A stretch of DNA of 35,031 nucleotides from a virus. Lineage: Duplodnaviria; Heunggongvirae; Uroviricota; Caudoviricetes. The position numbers and the translations under genes are program-made. Shown piece after piece: positions 5,652-12,749 of the stretch. Under the pieces are notes generated by a model. The model was not told the DNA's origin and did no database searches. It was given only the letters and a program-made list of their open reading frames with translations. Position 1 is the first letter of the stretch. Each line of letters begins with the position of its first letter. The DNA is taken from IMG/VR virus record IMGVR_UViG_638341082_000010; one strand, 5' to 3'.

Positions 5652-8474
5652 ATGACGACAGAGTACATCAGGGACTGGCAACAACCGCGCCACGCAGTGG
5701 GGCGTGAAGGAACGGGGATCCCCGCACCTGAATCCGCGCTTTCCTCCTGGCTGGATGCCTACCGGGCAGAGAACGAGCGCCGACAGGAAAAGGCTGATGC
5801 GGCGTTCTCCGCCACGCCGCTGGGCAACCTGATTAATAAAAGCCTGGATGCACAGGAAAAACAGGACAAAACTATCACACTGGCAGGAGACGTCAGAAAA
5901 CAGGCACGCGGCGCGGTGGATGAAGCCATGGCCTCGCTGCGCCTGCTGCCGTCCTATCTGCGCGATCCGCTTATTCGCCACCTCTCCTTCCTGCGCAAAA
6001 AACAGGAAGCCGATCGCCGGAAAGGCAAAAAGAGCTGGCAGGCGGAACGCTATGCACGCGGAACCCTGCGCAAAATATTCGAACGTCTGGATCGCACTGA
6101 CGGACGCTGGCTGACACCGGGTTATCGCTCCCTTGCCGGACGCGAACGCCTGGACGATTTGCTTTACCTGCCGCAGCTCAACAAACACCAGATACAGACG
6201 CTGGCCACCATGACGGCGGCGATGTTCAGCAGCACCTTCGAAAAACTCTGCGATGGCTTTGGCGCGACCGATGGCGAACTGACCATGGATGTAACGCTGA
6301 AGACGTATCAGATGCTGGCCCGCATGGCGTTACACCTGCACATCATGCCTCCACATTATGACGCACTGACAACAGATAAAGACCGGAGGAACGAACCGGA
6401 CACGGAGCTGCTGCCGGGCGCAGTCCTTCGCCTGACCTGTGCGGAATGGTGGAAACGCAAACTGTGGCTGTTACGTTGCGAGTGGAGAGAAGAACAACTC
6501 CGCGCCGCCTGTCTGGTTTCCAGAAAAACATCGCCCTATCTGAGCCAGGGCGCATTAAGCGAGTTTCGCGCACAGCGCGAGAAAACACGCGATTTCCTGA
6601 AAAGTTTCATGCTGGAAAATGAAGACGGGTTCACGATTGATCTCGAGACGGTGTATTACGCGGGAGTAAGTAACCCGGTTCACCGTAAGGCAGAAATGAT
6701 GACCACCATGAAGGGGCTGGAACTTCTGGCCGAAGCCCGTGGCGACAGAGCGGTGTTTCTGACTGTCACCTGCCCGTCAAAATACCACGCAACAACGGAG
6801 AACGGTCATCCGAATCCCAAATGGAACGGGGCCACCATGCGTGACTCCAGCGATTACCTGGTTAACACGTTTTTTGCGGCGGTCCGCAAAAAACTGAACC
6901 GCGACGGTCTTCGCTGGTATGGCATCCGCACGGTGGAGCCTCACCATGACGGCACTGTGCACTGGCATATGATGGTCTTTGCACATCCGGACGAGATTGA
7001 AACCATCGTGTCCCACGTCTGCGATATTGCCATTCAGGAAGACCGCCACGAGCTGGGCGATGACATAACTCCGCGTTTTAAAGCGGAGTACGTCGACGGC
7101 TCAAAAGGCACGCCAACCAGCTACATCGCCACCTACATCGGAAAGAACCTGGACAGCCGCGCCGTGGATGGTATCGACCCGAAAACGGGCAAGCCACGCG
7201 TTGACCACGAAACCGGAAAATCAATGGCCGAGAGCGTGGAGCGCGCCATCGGCTGGGCGCGCCTTCACCGGGTCCGCCAGTTCCAGTTCTTTGGCATCCC
7301 CTCCCGTCAGGTGTGGCGTGAACTGCGCCGCCTTGCCAGCCAGATGGCACGCAACCCGGAAGGCCCGCAACAGCTGAAGGATGACGCAATGGATGCAGTG
7401 CTCGCTGCCGCTGATGCCGGGTGTTTTGCCTCCTACATTGAAAAACAGGGCGGCGTACTTGTTCCACGCAAAGACTACCTGATTCGCACCGCCTACGACC
7501 TCGCAGATGAGCTGAACGATTACGGCGAACAGAGCGTACAGATTTACGGGATCTGGTCACCACTCATCGGGGAGTCTTCCCGTGTGTGCACACATCCGGA
7601 TAACTGGAAGCTGGTAAGACGTAAACCGGAAGCGGAAGACAGCGCCCGCGAAAATGGTTTTGACCTTCAGGGCGGCCCTGCCGCCCCTTGGACTCGTGGC
7701 AATAACTGTCCCCGTGTACAGGAAACGGACAACAACGGGACAGAACAGCCGGAAGAACGGCCAGCACCGTGGCCGCAGCTCCCTGACGGCGTTGAAGTGA
7801 ACGAATGGATGCGCTCACTGAAACGGCACGAACGCCGGGCGCTGATGCGTTCGCTGCGTGACAAGCAGGCAAAAAACAGCAGTGATGAAATGCAGAACTG
7901 GACACAGAGCCGCAAACAGCCACGGCCTTTGCCTGATAACCACGAATTACTCGCTAAAGAATGGCGGGAATCTGCCGAATCTCTCGGCCTGCATATCGGT
8001 GAACAGCAGATGCAGCACCTGTTACGGGGCGGCAGCCTGTACGTTGACGGCAGCATCATTGCACCACAGGGATTTGAAATTGTACGCAAACCGGATACCC
8101 GCCCGGACAGCCGAATCACGCAGCTCTGGCAGCACCTGAGCCGTAATCACGGCGTAAGCAGCACGGAGATCCGCCATAACCCGGTCGCCAGCTATCTGGA
8201 ACAGCTGGGGGCATCAGACCCCGAAGCCGCCGCACGTCTGGCATCCACACTTCAGCAGGACCAGAACACCATGAAAACCCCCGTTACCGTGCTTTCTGAC
8301 ATGCTGCGCGCCATTCGTGACGCAGAGCACGCACAGAGAATCAGTGAAACAACTGAACGCGCCCGCCGCAAAGCAGACCTGCTGCGGGGTGGCCTGACCA
8401 GTAGAAACAAAAAACAGACAGAAACGGGATTCACAAATCCCGTAAATGAGCAAAAAACGCGCCGCGATATATGA
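5652..8474 (+). CDS. A: Rolling-circle replication initiation endonuclease (P2 gpA family) with a long C-terminal extension
   Basis: 940 aa; HUH-type motif VHWHMMVF and paired catalytic tyrosines YIATYIGKN in the central domain. Confidence 0.9.
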   Translation: MTTEYIRDWQQPRHAVGREGTGIPAPESALSSWLDAYRAENERRQEKADAAFSATPLGNLINKSLDAQEKQDKTITLAGDVRKQARGAVDEAMASLRLLPSYLRDPLIRHLSFLRKKQEADRRKGKKSWQAERYARGTLRKIFERLDRTDGRWLTPGYRSLAGRERLDDLLYLPQLNKHQIQTLATMTAAMFSSTFEKLCDGFGATDGELTMDVTLKTYQMLARMALHLHIMPPHYDALTTDKDRRNEPDTELLPGAVLRLTCAEWWKRKLWLLRCEWREEQLRAACLVSRKTSPYLSQGALSEFRAQREKTRDFLKSFMLENEDGFTIDLETVYYAGVSNPVHRKAEMMTTMKGLELLAEARGDRAVFLTVTCPSKYHATTENGHPNPKWNGATMRDSSDYLVNTFFAAVRKKLNRDGLRWYGIRTVEPHHDGTVHWHMMVFAHPDEIETIVSHVCDIAIQEDRHELGDDITPRFKAEYVDGSKGTPTSYIATYIGKNLDSRAVDGIDPKTGKPRVDHETGKSMAESVERAIGWARLHRVRQFQFFGIPSRQVWRELRRLASQMARNPEGPQQLKDDAMDAVLAAADAGCFASYIEKQGGVLVPRKDYLIRTAYDLADELNDYGEQSVQIYGIWSPLIGESSRVCTHPDNWKLVRRKPEAEDSARENGFDLQGGPAAPWTRGNNCPRVQETDNNGTEQPEERPAPWPQLPDGVEVNEWMRSLKRHERRALMRSLRDKQAKNSSDEMQNWTQSRKQPRPLPDNHELLAKEWRESAESLGLHIGEQQMQHLLRGGSLYVDGSIIAPQGFEIVRKPDTRPDSRITQLWQHLSRNHGVSSTEIRHNPVASYLEQLGASDPEAAARLASTLQQDQNTMKTPVTVLSDMLRAIRDAEHAQRISETTERARRKADLLRGGLTSRNKKQTETGFTNPVNEQKTRRDI

Positions 8475-8550: not shown

Positions 8551-9510
8551 ATGAAAATTTGTATCGACGACGGCTCCACCAACATCAAGCTGGCATGGAC
8601 TGAGAACGGCGAACGCCGCAACGCCATCAGCCCGAACAGCTTCAAGTCGGAATGGTCTGCGCCGTTCGGTGGCACGCAGCCCGCGAACTACATGCTTGAT
8701 GGCGTGCGCTATGGTTTTGATCCGGTCAGCGATCGCTTTGTCCAGACGACCGACACGCAATACCAGTACAGCGATGTGAATGTAATCGCCATTCACCACG
8801 CGCTGGTCAAATCAGGCATCACACCACAGGAAGTGGATGTGGTTGTTACCCTGCCACTGAGCGAGTATTTCGACACAAACGCACAGCCGGACATGGCCAA
8901 CATCAACCGCAAAAAAGCGAACGTTATGCGCCCGGTGGAGTACCAGAACGGCGAAGCATTCACTATCCGTAACGTGCGGGTTATGCCTGAATCCATTCCG
9001 GCTGGCTTTAAAGCACTGGCTGACATGAGTCCGTTTGAATCCCTGCTGATTGTGGATTTAGGCGGAACCACGCTGGATGTGGCAAAGGTTCAGGGGCAAC
9101 TGGCAGGTATCAGCCAGGTGTTTTGCGATCCACACGTAGGCGTCTCCCTGATGGCCGGTGCCGTGCTGTCGGTGATGGCCGCTAACGGTATGCGTACCAG
9201 TCACCACATCGCCAATACCATTATCGAACATCGCCATGATGAAGCCTGGTTGCGCCAACACATCCACAATGACGCGCATTACGCCAGCCTGATGGCGGTT
9301 ATTCGTGAAAAGGAAGAAACACTGAAACAACGCGTGATCCGCGCGCTGGCGGGTTTTTCGGGTTACGGGCGGGTGATGGTTGTCGGTGGCGGGGCGGAGA
9401 TTGTGGCACCCGCTATCCGCGAAGCCTGCGGAGTTAATGCGACTTTCATCGCGGACGGGGTGCCACAGTTTGCTCTGGTTAATGGGCTGTACGCAATGGA
9501 CAAGGAGTAA
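8551..9510 (+). CDS. parM: Actin-like plasmid segregation ATPase ParM/StbA
   Basis: 319 aa; N-terminus MKICIDDGSTNIKLAW and internal VMPESIPAG, DLGGTTLD, VMVVGGGAE, LVNGLY match the R1 ParM/StbA pattern. Confidence 0.85.
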   Translation: MKICIDDGSTNIKLAWTENGERRNAISPNSFKSEWSAPFGGTQPANYMLDGVRYGFDPVSDRFVQTTDTQYQYSDVNVIAIHHALVKSGITPQEVDVVVTLPLSEYFDTNAQPDMANINRKKANVMRPVEYQNGEAFTIRNVRVMPESIPAGFKALADMSPFESLLIVDLGGTTLDVAKVQGQLAGISQVFCDPHVGVSLMAGAVLSVMAANGMRTSHHIANTIIEHRHDEAWLRQHIHNDAHYASLMAVIREKEETLKQRVIRALAGFSGYGRVMVVGGGAEIVAPAIREACGVNATFIADGVPQFALVNGLYAMDKE

Positions 9511-9514
9511 ACCA

Positions 9515-9829
9515 ATGACGACACCAACCAGACGGATAAGTTTCTATCTGAAGCCAGTCGCCGTCAATAGTGAACGGGAGGCGTGTAATTACCTCGACAG
9601 CCTGCCAGCCTCTGAACGCAGCCGCGCGCAACGCGCGGCCTTTCTGGCCGGGCTGGCACTCATAAAACGCGATCCTGCATTTGCCTATTGGTTGGCCGAA
9701 TGGCCGGAAGAAGGAGCTGCGCCAGCCAAGAATAATATTCAGAGTAAATATGCCAGCACACCTGCCACCGGAAGCAATCACAGCACTAGCGAGATAAGAA
9801 AGAACATTCAGTCATTTTTCCCAGAGTGA
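9515..9829 (+). CDS. parR: ParR/StbB-like centromere-binding adaptor
   Basis: 104 aa from ATG after an AAGGAG RBS; N-terminus RRISFYLKP...LDSLPASERSRAQRAAFLAGLAL resembles R1 ParR. Confidence 0.75.
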   Translation: MTTPTRRISFYLKPVAVNSEREACNYLDSLPASERSRAQRAAFLAGLALIKRDPAFAYWLAEWPEEGAAPAKNNIQSKYASTPATGSNHSTSEIRKNIQSFFPE

Positions 9830-9848: not shown

Positions 9849-10310
9849 ATGGCAACTATCCCCAAAAAATGGTTACAACGCAAAATTGCAGACCTTGAAT
9901 CGTGTCGTGAAGACATCCCGTTTGGCCTTGATGAAAACGATCACAATATGTTAATCGCACTGAAAATCGCACTCACATCGCTGGAAGCAGAGGCAGTTAT
10001 GTTCTGTATATCAGGACAAAATGTAGATTCAGAAGAACATGTATCAACCAGCAAAGCGGTTGTTGATGCCTGGGTTGAAGAATGGAATCAGGTTGACGGA
10101 AGTCCTGGCGAACCACTGTACAAAACTATGCCACTCTACTATCACGCTGCCTTGCCAGCGCCGGTAGTGCCGGAAGAAGCAACTCCGGAAAACGTAGAAA
10201 TGCTCTCTGGCTATGTTTCCACGTACAAATTAACCGATAGCGAGCGCGATATTGCTGCCGAAATATGGAACGCCTGCCGCGCCGCTATGCTTCATGGGAA
10301 AGGAGAGTGA
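9849..10310 (+). CDS. Hypothetical protein, lower-GC cargo
   Basis: 153-aa ORF with AGGAGAGGAG RBS; no recognisable motif. Confidence 0.55.
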   Translation: MATIPKKWLQRKIADLESCREDIPFGLDENDHNMLIALKIALTSLEAEAVMFCISGQNVDSEEHVSTSKAVVDAWVEEWNQVDGSPGEPLYKTMPLYYHAALPAPVVPEEATPENVEMLSGYVSTYKLTDSERDIAAEIWNACRAAMLHGKGE

Positions 10311-10311
10311 T

Positions 10312-10575
10312 ATGGCAACTTTAACAAAAAAAGAACGGGCATGGTTGAACGAATTACAGGACGTTCTTGATCGCTGCCCATCACCGAAAAAAATTGGTTT
10401 TTACACCATTGGCGATAAAAGCATTTACCTGTATGACCTGCGCCGCATGGATGAAATCATGGAGGCTCTTGATAATCGTTCGTCAATGGATTGGTGTGTT
10501 GCTGTCCATGATATGAATGCAGGGTTTGATGAAAAGATTTTGTTCCCCTCATCAGTTGAAAGCACAGCAGGATAA
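10312..10575 (+). CDS. Hypothetical protein, lower-GC cargo, coupled to the previous gene
   Basis: 87 aa from ATG at 10312 with AGGAGAG RBS, 1 bp after the upstream stop. Confidence 0.5.
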   Translation: MATLTKKERAWLNELQDVLDRCPSPKKIGFYTIGDKSIYLYDLRRMDEIMEALDNRSSMDWCVAVHDMNAGFDEKILFPSSVESTAG

Positions 10576-10610
10576 GGACCCAGCAAATATACACAACCTA
10601 TAAAACACTA

Positions 10611-10633
10611 AAGCGCCTCAGGGGCGCTTTTTG
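10611..10633 (+). terminator. Intrinsic terminator (AGCGCC-TCAG-GGCGCT then T5)
   Basis: GC hairpin plus T-run about 35 bp after the stop at 10575. Confidence 0.6.
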
Positions 10634-10635
10634 TT

Positions 10636-10662
10636 TGCACAAAAGTGCACAAATTTGCACAA
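10636..10662. repeat. Three direct TGCACAA repeats at exact 10-bp spacing
   Basis: Read from sequence: TGCACAAAAG TGCACAAATT TGCACAATTT. Confidence 0.5.
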
Positions 10663-10758
10663 TTTTTTTGAACGACTTTTTACCCTTCCGGCCCGCATGG
10701 CGGCTGGATCCGTCAAGGATCCGTGCGTGCACAAAAAAACGCGTTTTTTCTGCGCGCA

Positions 10759-10780
10759 GGTGACGGGGGAACAGCCCGCG
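10759..10780. other. Candidate cos-like GC-rich segment (GGTGACGGGGGAACAGCC)
   Basis: Partial resemblance to the recalled P2/186 19-nt cohesive-end sequences; position between the replication-side genes and Q matches the prophage map. Confidence 0.25.
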
Positions 10781-11035
10781 TTTCAGGGGGGTAAATAGCA
10801 TTCCCTGAATGATGTCGCAGAGACACAACAGAATGGCTGTATTTCTCATGCTGAGCGTGAAAAAGACGTGAGGGCTTTTGATTTGATGGGATGACAGATA
10901 GGGCTGTCAAAATCGCACTGAGGCAGTGAGAACATGCTGTCAGCGCGATGGGATTGCGTAAGAGTCCGGCAGTCGATGATGGCAATAAGTTGGAAGATGT
11001 CGTGAAATTATCTGATTGATACAGGAGCTGGAGAG

Positions 11036-11060
11036 TCGGGGCATAAATTTTTTATGCCCC
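11036..11060. promoter_or_regulatory. Perfect palindrome GGGGCATAAA-TTT-TTTATGCCCC about 100 bp upstream of the cargo gene
   Basis: 10-bp arms read from sequence; no flanking U-tract, so operator-like rather than terminator. Confidence 0.4.
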
Positions 11061-11162
11061 GGCGAAGCAGCAGACAAGCGAAGCGCGTCAGCGATACGGC
11101 ACCTTGCCGACCATACTTCATAAGTGCAAAATACGAGCAAAGAAATCAATGGAGGCTGTCTT

Positions 11163-11687
11163 ATGGTCATTAATTACAAGCAGTTAAGAGAAAAACGGGA
11201 GCAGGTAAAGGAGAGCTTTCGCCGCAATGAAGATCTGACCCCGCTTGTACGCCTTGCCCAGGGCATTGTTGATGCTTATGAAATCTCGCTGGAGCTGCCA
11301 TCACAGACCTGGACAGATAGCGACGGTAATCGCCAGCATTACGTTTCATGCGGACTGGAAGCAGCCGAAGGATTTCGCAGAATGCCTTTATCTCAGATCC
11401 CTGCCGCTACCCCCAAAGCACGGGGCTGCAATGATGAGCGAAAACTGACTTTTAGTATTGAAACGGTGGTTGACGACACACCTGGCGAAGTCGCGTTCGT
11501 GCACACTCCTGTTTCGATCGCAATGTATAACGATGAAATACAGGTTCGCGTTAATAATAATATCGTGCCACTTAAAGAAGGTAATTCACCATACACCACC
11601 GTTTGTGAAGCCATTCAATATTACGTTCTCTCTGAAATTGATAATCTCAAGCCTGACGGCACCCAGAAAATGGTTCAACTCTGGTAA
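11163..11687 (+). CDS. Hypothetical cargo protein between the cos region and the portal gene
   Basis: 174 aa from ATG with GGAGG RBS; lower GC than backbone; convergent with Q. Confidence 0.5.
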   Translation: MVINYKQLREKREQVKESFRRNEDLTPLVRLAQGIVDAYEISLELPSQTWTDSDGNRQHYVSCGLEAAEGFRRMPLSQIPAATPKARGCNDERKLTFSIETVVDDTPGEVAFVHTPVSIAMYNDEIQVRVNNNIVPLKEGNSPYTTVCEAIQYYVLSEIDNLKPDGTQKMVQLW

Positions 11688-11693
11688 AAAGGA

Positions 11694-11719
11694 CAGCCCC
11701 AATCACGGGGCTGTTTTTT
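11694..11719 (+). terminator. Intrinsic terminator hairpin (CAGCCCC-AATCA-CGGGGCTG then T6) overlapping the 3' end of Q
   Basis: GC stem plus T6 directly after the 11687 stop. Confidence 0.6.
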
Positions 11720-12749
11720 CATCAAGAAGAGCATAAGAATTAAAACGGATCACCTCTTCGCCAAGCCAGTCATTGATGTGCTTCATGGCCTCCATAACGG
11801 GCATCAGCTCGTTAATTGCATAAACCCGCGCGGCCTTCTCCACATCACCAAACGCACTTTTTTCGCCCGGCATCGCCCCCATCAGTTGCGGTGGAACACG
11901 GTGCGCAGCCAGCACATCATCACGGGATGCCGCCTTAACATTCATGAACTCATCTTTTGCGGTGATCTGCTGGAACGGCAAAATTTGCACCCCCTCTTTG
12001 CCCCCGTTGGGCGCATGGATGAGCACGTTTTTAAACGCACCACCACCACGCGCACCCTGTAACGTTTCTTTCAGGGAGTCCATGCTTTCGCGGTTTACCT
12101 GCGCTGCACCGATATAGATGATGCACCCGGCGTGGGATCCATTGTCGTAATACAGTTTTCTGAACATGTCCGCCGAATGAGACAGGCTGGCCGAGAGTAA
12201 TGCGCCAAGATATTCCGGCATGCCGTAAATTTCCTGGTTAATGTCCGGATTCATCAGGTGGCACACTTTGCCAGGGCGAAACTGAAACGCATCCTTGCCA
12301 TCCTGCACATACCACCATGATTCAAGATCGCTTCCGCGTCGCATGTATTTCGCCAGGGCGTGCCGTAATTTAAGCGGTTCGCCGAGCATATTGCTTCGAA
12401 GCTCAAGAAATGCGTTACCGAACACAAACCAGTCCAGCGCCAGCGCCGAGAAATCCTGCCGGGAAAGCAGCGGGTGCGGAATATAGCAACCGAGCAATAC
12501 ATTGCGCTTAAAGTAAAGCGCAGACTGATGCCAGGACGTTTGCCGGGCAGCTCTTGCCAGACCGTACCAGTCCACCGGGGTTTCATACCACCGCCCGTTA
12601 TCAGCACAGTACATATTGTCCAGCAAATCATGCCCGGTCAGGCGATAAGGACCATCAAATGTGAATGCACTGAGCGACGATTCTTTCCTGAGCGCATCAG
12701 CGAGATCAATGCGTGAACTCATGCGCACTTTTTTATTTTTTCTGCTCAT
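11703..12749 (-). CDS. Q: Portal protein (P2 gpQ family)
   Basis: 348 aa; divergent from O and directly downstream of P with ATGA overlap, as in P2. Confidence 0.9.
   Translation of the reverse strand: MSRKNKKVRMSSRIDLADALRKESSLSAFTFDGPYRLTGHDLLDNMYCADNGRWYETPVDWYGLARAARQTSWHQSALYFKRNVLLGCYIPHPLLSRQDFSALALDWFVFGNAFLELRSNMLGEPLKLRHALAKYMRRGSDLESWWYVQDGKDAFQFRPGKVCHLMNPDINQEIYGMPEYLGALLSASLSHSADMFRKLYYDNGSHAGCIIYIGAAQVNRESMDSLKETLQGARGGGAFKNVLIHAPNGGKEGVQILPFQQITAKDEFMNVKAASRDDVLAAHRVPPQLMGAMPGEKSAFGDVEKAARVYAINELMPVMEAMKHINDWLGEEVIRFNSYALLDEKTAP

Follow-up and report, generated by a model that had tools for sequence, protein, structure and literature searches.

In P2-like phages, the cos-proximal interval between gpA and gpQ is a defence hotspot, which holds tin and old in P2 and several validated anti-phage systems (Rousset et al. 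2022, PMC9122126; PMC13586616; bioRxiv 10.1101/2024.10.15.618418). Here we discuss a gene of this interval on a 35,031-nucleotide (nt) stretch of viral DNA, IMG/VR record IMGVR_UViG_638341082_000010 (the whole stretch is referred to as "the window"), which is a P88-type prophage of the P2 family, genus Xuanwuvirus, from Escherichia coli. The gene, referred to as the cargo gene, lies between A and Q, next to cos, and encodes a protein of 174 amino acids (aa). The cassette that carries it is a classical accessory-gene ("moron") insertion between cos and Q in a P88-like phage of the P2 family. The substitution pattern indicates a functional protein-coding gene under strong purifying selection. 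As to its role, we suggest, with a probability of about 0.4, that it encodes a self-transcribed, non-enzymatic exclusion or defence protein that would be made in the lysogen.

The closest described systems are the exclusion genes tin and old of P2. Like these, the cargo gene is a variably present accessory gene in the gpA-gpQ interval by cos, and a single gene with its own transcription signals. However, tin and old are found between A and cos and the cargo gene between cos and Q, and the cargo product shows no similarity to theirs in sequence or fold. Old is an ATPase-nuclease, whereas no enzymatic motif is present in the 174-aa protein; moreover, Tin and Old are known as exclusion genes, while the cargo gene is known here from its sequence. 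The mode that we propose for the 174-aa protein, binding of a protein of an invading phage, resembles that of Tin. A second comparison concerns morons such as stx and ctx. Here, the shared features are a separate unit with its own terminator and an atypical G+C content (GC), inserted between genes that neighbour each other in relatives. Distant homologues of the cargo gene even occupy the slot between antiterminator Q and holin, and in Stx phages this Q-to-holin/lysis slot holds stx. The phage phiCTX carries ctx next to cos, a position that we take to be analogous to that of the cargo gene. In contrast to the stx and ctx products, the 174-aa product is predicted to be cytoplasmic and not a secreted toxin. 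Finally, the protein is a full member of PHROG 5091 and differs from it in no respect. This phage protein family has no function assigned in the database annotation, and membership explains nothing of function.

The borders of the cassette were determined by aligning the window with P88 and PhiR44_2. The identity to P88, the closest reference phage and one that lacks the cargo gene, ends after GCGCGTCAG (position 11091), a motif within which TCA (11088-11090) corresponds to the Q stop codon in P88, and it returns at ~11740-11753 within Q. The inserted DNA includes ~70 base pairs (bp) upstream of the open reading frame (ORF). At the other end, the C-terminus of Q is VIRFNSYALLDEKTAP in the window (...YALLDEKTAP) versus VIRFNPYALLDTQPTS in P88 (...YALLDTQPTS), and the right-hand junction looks like the outcome of a homologous exchange inside Q with another P2-like phage. 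The neighbours of the cassette are adjacent in relatives: in P88, and in ~60% of the P88-like prophages, a conserved palindrome module (see below) leads directly to Q. The gene-terminator-Q arrangement of the window is present in a Salmonella relative.

The cassette carries its own terminator and deviates in base composition. The hairpin downstream of the cargo gene is read as bidirectional because its stem (11693-11714) is followed on the plus strand by TTTTTT and folds stably (-22.3 kcal/mol, z -5.4), while the terminator scan lists the same stem on the minus strand; an A-run precedes the stem and a T-run follows it. The stop codon of Q (11703-11705) is located inside the terminator loop, and the two convergent stop codons are only 15 nt apart. 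For the ORF and the cassette, GC values of 0.470 and 0.463 compare with 0.522, 0.539 and 0.574 for Q, P and A, respectively. The GC dip of the cargo gene is modest yet real. A Shine-Dalgarno sequence precedes the ATG; an upstream GTG start in the mechanical ORF list (position 11124, 187 aa) was rejected, since the homologues and the RefSeq entries all begin M-V-I-N-Y. The original prediction, made from the letters of the window, had described a stand-alone cargo gene in a moron position: a 174-aa ORF with a good ribosome-binding site, convergent with Q, sharing a terminator hairpin with it and lower in GC than its neighbours. These claims agree with the features above, and recurrence of the family in accessory-gene slots of unrelated temperate phages adds to the moron assignment.

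The statement that the cargo gene lies between cos and Q, which also formed part of that prediction, follows from the placement of a cos-like 19-mer, GGTGACGGGGGAACAGCCC, at 10759-10777. This sequence equals P2 cos at 13 of 19 positions. Upstream of it, TGCACAA occurs three times in exact 10-bp phase (positions 10636, 10646 and 10656) and a fourth time at 10728; P2 cos is preceded by TGCAT repeats in the same relative position, and the TGCACAA repeats are likely terminase-binding sites. The 19-mer or a close variant is kept in P2-like prophages of Salmonella, Trabulsiella and E. coli (AMSCJX04), and in AMSCJX04, as in P2, ~160 bp separate it from the Q stop. Two other candidates, GGCGAAGCAGCAGACAAGC at 11061 and a 19-mer overlapping the left arm of the palindrome, were set aside because the Salmonella prophage, the terminase of which is 78% identical to that of the window, has a 10759-type site and neither alternative. 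The site at 10759-10777 is therefore the best candidate and the probable cos, as judged from these sequence comparisons. In P2, 186 and PSP3 the cos-Q interval is only ~170 bp and carries no gene; the earlier claim that P2 lacks a gene here thus holds, and the gene is missing in P88 as well.

The original prediction also held that a palindrome upstream of the gene guards it and looks like an operator. The palindrome, CGGGGCATAAA / TTTATGCCCCG at 11037-11061, is indeed perfect, and its end lies 102 bp before the ATG, close to the ~100 bp stated; the arms, separated by a 3-nt loop, are 11 nt long and not 10. Only two inverted repeats of the 35-kb window are perfect over arms of 11 nt or more, versus 0.25 expected from first-order Markov random sequences based on the window's own base transitions. 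The other one (6869-6894) lies inside replication gene A; P2-type origins are located within A. In an operator model, a repressor would control the cargo gene through the palindrome, and the perfect arms, the distance to the ATG and the excess over chance are what it has in its favour. However, the palindrome module is identical in P88 and in other prophages without the cargo gene; in P88 it lies ~27 bp past the Q stop. A 65-72-bp version of the module, at ~92-94% identity, is also present in P2-like prophages whose terminase (TerL) is only 36% identical (L003:6001-6072, L004:6001-6065). There, it directly follows the stop codon (the same TCA) of an ogr-like gene situated between the module and Q, and a T:A pair of the arms is replaced by A:T, a compensatory change. 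These 65-72-bp matches (H79 and H80) were first suspected to be P4-like satellites sharing cos and proved to be other P2-like prophages. In a third arrangement (L018), the palindrome is positioned between a different, convergent cargo gene and Q. Conversely, the palindrome is absent from the other homologue loci, Salmonella included, and in the window it ends 43 bp upstream of the candidate -35 element and thus does not abut the promoter. Its identity in gene-free phages, and its place behind an ogr-like gene in P2-like phages that are unrelated, mark the palindrome as a 3′-end element of the phage backbone, and control of the cargo gene through it appears very improbable.

What, then, is the palindrome? 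Its predicted hairpin is stable (-26 to -33 kcal/mol, z -3.6 to -4.9; -26 kcal/mol on the minus strand), yet no T-run follows the stem on either strand (ACUCUCC on the minus and GCGAAGC on the plus strand), and the terminator scan does not list it. A stable GC-rich hairpin just past the last stop codon is found only in the cargo-free arrangement, after Q in P88 and after the ogr-like gene in L003 and L004. In this respect it resembles tQ, the rho-independent terminator after Q in P2: in the cargo-free arrangement both are GC-rich hairpins between Q and cos, a few to ~27 bp past the Q stop. The missing T-run sets it apart from tQ and from canonical intrinsic terminators in general. As it combines a stable fold with no T-run, we refer to it as a late-transcript 3′-end hairpin, which may terminate transcription in a non-canonical way, stabilise the transcript or bind a protein. 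In this view, the cassette entered between the old 3′-end hairpin of Q and Q itself, bringing a canonical bidirectional terminator, and the old Q-transcript hairpin was left stranded upstream of the new gene by accident.

The distribution of the cargo gene was surveyed in 5426 complete E. coli genomes. The gene is present in 397 of them and the backbone in ~1146; all 397 copies are full length, at least 90% identical and located in the cos-Q slot, while most other sampled backbone records have the empty P88-like junction. The ratio of nonsynonymous to synonymous substitution rates (dN/dS) is 0.08-0.10 when E. coli alleles are compared with one another and 0.17 for the homologues of Salmonella and Trabulsiella. 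Because such values indicate strong purifying selection, the cargo gene is not the degraded fragment that the original prediction had considered as an alternative. The carriers include pathogenic lineages, such as sequence type 131 (ST131) and O111/O103/O121 Shiga toxin-producing E. coli (STEC). This frequency, together with the analogy to the position of ctx in phiCTX, might favour a host-directed lysogenic-conversion factor that alters physiology or virulence. However, the lineage frequency merely tracks that of the P88-like prophage, and homologues in insect-associated Xenorhabdus, in Serratia and in environmental metagenomes speak against a host-specific virulence role. In addition, no signal peptide or membrane segment was identified in the 174-aa protein, the N-terminus of which is charged (MVINYKQLREKREQ) and the hydropathy of which does not exceed 0.86 (Kyte-Doolittle, 19 residues), and the protein is thus not a secreted toxin. 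We therefore rank a host-directed role last among the functional alternatives and regard it as quite improbable.

A second PHROG 5091 paralogue occupies the cos-Q interval in 31 of the 5426 genomes (L018:2950-3453 in E. coli DG342-2, NZ_CM144242.1). It is inserted upstream of the palindrome and not downstream, at a place equivalent to 10890-11036 of the window. It shares ~20% identity with the 174-aa protein (hhalign probability 98%) and matches PHROG 5091 with an E value of 3e-52; its RefSeq start is over-extended (236 aa versus 167 aa). The two paralogues occur together in none of the 31 genomes, all of which have an empty Q-side junction. Under independence ~11 co-occurrences would be expected, a figure to be read with the clonality of many of the 31 genomes in mind. 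Alternation of very divergent paralogues at one site is typical of conflict genes.

The relationship of the 174-aa protein to PHROG 5091 covers practically its entire length (E 1.5e-67; residues 1-168 versus profile positions 1-164 of 164). Scans against Pfam, NCBIfam and PADLOC gave no match to the protein. Likewise, Pfam and PADLOC scans of 25 relatives revealed nothing meaningful, one chance-level PADLOC match among the other 24 aside, while PHROG 5091 was matched by 25 of the 25 diverse relatives sampled. A word-indexed search recovered enterobacterial relatives only; an exhaustive profile search recovered 89 representatives at 50% identity, nearly all of 155-175 aa and related end to end. 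The family shares an N-terminal M-x-I-T/N-Y and the motifs AYxxSLxLPxxxWxDxxGxxxxYV, F-x-I-x-TV-x-DD-x-P and VCxxIK/Q. Three homologues (L023, L026 and L028) are annotated with an N-terminal extension of 12-13 residues; their true start is suggested to be an internal ATG, since translation from there gives an M-[ST]-I-T-Y N-terminus, an internal GGAG is present, and an ATGACA-17-AATTAT promoter-like element overlaps the annotated start.

Homology searches and structure prediction were proposed in the original prediction as a check. Sequence profiles connect the protein to PHROG 5091 only, with no similarity to structural proteins, the other alternative that had been considered. The AlphaFold model is confident, with a predicted local distance difference test score (pLDDT) of 79 and a predicted template modelling score (pTM) of 0.73; it shows two helices at the N-terminus, an antiparallel sheet and a further helix at the C-terminus. 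A fold search with this model gave no match, and the weak resemblance seen was limited to small protein-binding modules. A sequence search of the PDB with a narrow profile gave designed helical-repeat proteins at E 2e-10; these were lost with a diverse profile and were dismissed as spurious. Taken together, the predicted properties of this soluble, mildly acidic protein suggest no enzymatic function, and a stoichiometric binding role is the most economical reading of the model.

The homologues were found in several genomic contexts. In the Salmonella P2-like prophage, the homologue is located in the cos-Q slot in the same position and orientation as in the window. In the Trabulsiella P2-like prophage, it directly follows gpA and is itself followed by HicAB and Phd/Fic toxin-antitoxin genes (L007:6738-8053). 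In four lambdoid prophages (from Klebsiella, Serratia, a metagenome and an insect symbiont) the homologue is always positioned between antiterminator Q and holin. The copy of Xenorhabdus myophages is flanked on one side by tail tube/chaperone genes and on the other by an 835-aa ORF whose size and position suggest that it is the tape-measure gene. As a separate observation, the homologue of the Serratia lambdoid prophage adjoins a HicAB pair (L021:6242-6876), as does that of the unrelated Trabulsiella phage. Inspection by eye revealed, at most homologue copies examined, a hairpin with a GC stem and a T-run on one or both sides and an AT-rich, promoter-like spacer upstream. No partner gene is conserved across the homologue loci examined. 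Collectively, these comparisons indicate that the PHROG 5091 gene is a single-gene unit that has been captured repeatedly, in accessory-gene slots, by temperate phages of at least three architectures.

All copies examined are located in or border a late or packaging region (cos/portal, Q-holin, tail module). This raises the question whether the protein serves the phage's own life cycle, in late expression, lysis timing or packaging, or inhibits capsid-hijacking P4-like or PICI-like (phage-inducible chromosomal island) satellites, which parasitise both P2-like and lambdoid phages (PMC9122126, PMC13586616). Such a role is difficult to reconcile with the ~60% of P88-like prophages that do without the gene. 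Profile and structure searches, moreover, show no similarity to structural, regulatory or packaging proteins, and the Trabulsiella copy is situated after gpA among toxin-antitoxin genes and not in a late operon. We consider a life-cycle or anti-satellite function improbable.

In the main rival reading, the protein is a counter-defence inhibitor: by binding and neutralising an immune protein of the host, or by sequestering a signal of immunity, it would permit infection of, or induction in, hosts that carry the system in question. A small, soluble and mildly acidic protein with no catalytic motif would suit this role. In the lambdoid prophages the homologue immediately follows antiterminator Q, a place that implies strong expression in the lytic cycle, and in virion DNA no gene lies closer to the left cohesive end than the cargo gene; alternation of two very divergent paralogues at one locus is also what an arms race predicts. 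Conversely, the gene is not adjoined by a helix-turn-helix regulator of the type associated with anti-CRISPR genes, and the self-contained, terminator-flanked layout suits expression from the prophage. Toxin-antitoxin neighbours, as found in two contexts, are typical of defence hotspots, and DefensePredictor lists a probable allele of the 174-aa protein as defensive (see below). Counter-defence is rather unlikely and ranks above the life-cycle and host-directed alternatives.

Returning to exclusion or defence, two lines of evidence make a function in defence, exclusion or lysogenic conversion a reasonable expectation: the locus belongs to the gpA-gpQ defence hotspot, and a probable allele is among the candidates of a machine-learning predictor. 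The entry in question is WP_000236487.1, a 174-aa hypothetical protein of E. coli, given as a "predicted novel defense gene" with a mean log-odds of 4.65 at a cut-off of 4 (DefensePredictor Table S10, PMC13092281). It is very probably an allele of the 174-aa protein because the verified alleles are WP_000236489, 491, 493, 495 and 496. One confirmed allele, WP_000236495, appears in the table of gpA-gpQ arrangements of Rousset et al. as "hypothetical" (PMC9122126). Literature searches that used the RefSeq accession, the PHROG number or the name of the virus genus did not retrieve any study of function.

The mechanism that we favour would proceed as follows. The cargo gene would have a weak sigma-70 promoter of its own, its transcription would not depend on the P2 late operons, and the protein would thus be made in the lysogen. 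There, it would bind its target stoichiometrically, either a protein encoded by a superinfecting phage or a host factor on which such a phage depends, and competitors would be excluded in the manner of P2 Tin and not by an enzymatic defence. The conserved N-terminal half (M-x-I-T/N-Y ... AYxxSLxLPxxxWxDxxGxxxxYV) may represent the common core, and the variable sheet may carry the target specificity. In this context, the -10-like GCAAAATA of the promoter candidate is kept at the Salmonella homologue locus at an equal distance to the ATG.

Several observations weigh against this mechanism. The promoter candidate (TTGCCG-17-CAAAAT) agrees with the consensus at 8 of 12 positions, below the scan threshold of 9 of 12, and is therefore not listed by the scan. 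In the lambdoid prophages the homologues sit where late, Q-dependent transcription would act, as for stx, and a lytic role fits there at least equally well. Among small, acidic phage proteins with no enzymatic activity, inhibitors of host defence are commoner than defence proteins. Moreover, the cos-Q sub-slot is nearly binary, either empty or occupied by the PHROG 5091 family, unlike the hypervariable part of the hotspot between parR and cos. The PADLOC scan of the protein gave no match, and no homology to a known or candidate defence protein ties the family to defence. With respect to the predictor, the log-odds exceed the cut-off by little, and the identification of WP_000236487.1 as an allele derives from its length and the accession series and not from its sequence. 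Further, this protein was outside the units cloned by the DefensePredictor authors, 45% of whose tested units were validated, and the predictor uses GC content and neighbouring genes (PMC13092281), and its score is thus not independent of the observations made here.

A wider proposal may be put forward more tentatively, as one that we hold to be rather doubtful. PHROG 5091 might represent a new family of effectors that act as single, non-enzymatic proteins in conflicts of phages with other phages or with satellites; their fold would be unlike solved structures and would combine a core with a specificity sheet. It would have been captured independently by three phage architectures, and its paralogues would be swapped at cos-Q as an arms-race locus. 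In a bolder variant, the cargo gene would be a leading-end counter-defence gene that is expressed on DNA entry, being the first gene inward from the left cohesive end.

The features discussed above, together with those of the surrounding prophage, are listed in Table 1.

Table 1. Features of the cargo locus and its surroundings (positions refer to the window).
Feature	Position	Strand	Remarks
Replication gene A	5652-8474		GC 0.574
ParM/ParR partition pair	8551-9829		Directly after gpA
Terminator-like hairpin	10610-10630	Both (flagged by terminator scan)	Stem AAAGCGCC...GGCGCTTT with T-runs; ends the rightward early/accessory genes
Probable cos region	10636-10777	+	TGCACAA repeats, then the cos-like 19-mer at 10759-10777
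Backbone 3′-end module	11025-11091	-	Palindrome and ~30 nt; ends at TCA 11088-11090
Inserted cassette relative to P88	11092 to ~11752	+	~660 bp; promoter-like site, ribosome-binding site, ORF, terminator and a replacement for the last ~16 Q codons
Weak sigma-70-like promoter candidate	11104-11132	+	TTGCCG-17 nt-CAAAAT; read from sequence
Shine-Dalgarno GGAGG	11152-11156	+	6-nt spacer to ATG; read from sequence
Cargo gene	11163-11687	+	174-aa soluble protein, isoelectric point 5.0, PHROG 5091
Bidirectional intrinsic terminator	11688-11719	Both	Common to the cargo gene and Q
Portal gene Q	11703-12749	-	Convergent with the cargo gene; annotated as portal in PhiR44_2, P88 and RefSeq; GC 0.522

The region 10580-11760 is 97% identical to the Escherichia phages PhiR44_2, vB_EcoM-569R5 and vB_EcoM-705R2, and its left part is ~91% identical to P88 and P88 relatives. 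Beyond Q lies the terminase gene P; the GC of the whole window is 0.53. A search of 10400-11900 against Rfam gave no match. The partition pair comprises an actin-like ParM (StbA) and a ParR-like protein (Plasmid_stab_B) and is kept in P88-like phages; in the window the prophage is chromosomally integrated, and the pair may point to a plasmid-like phase or to a role in stabilising the genome as it replicates. Small accessory ORFs are located between this pair and the hairpin at 10610-10630, and DNA with no coding sequence separates that hairpin from the cargo gene. Within the hotspot, true hypervariability is seen in the sub-slot between parR and cos (9849-10575), which contains two ORFs here (PHROG 5117 and PHROG 1714), a DUF3800 gene in strain ETEC4069 and different genes in P88 (compare L013:10031-10837 and L002:2293-2960).

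The cargo gene is an uncharacterised member of a well-known class of features, the morons, and as such a precisely delimited candidate and no surprise. The analysis provides exact cassette borders for cloning and removes the operator model of the palindrome, and the two distant paralogues that alternate at one locus offer a natural comparison of specificity. Approximately 7% of complete E. coli genomes carry the gene on a P88-like prophage, among them the pandemic ST131 and several Shiga toxin-producing serogroups. If the protein does act in exclusion, or in the neutralisation of host defence, it would affect which therapeutic and temperate phages infect such strains, and a small family with an unmatched fold would join the repertoire of phage conflict.

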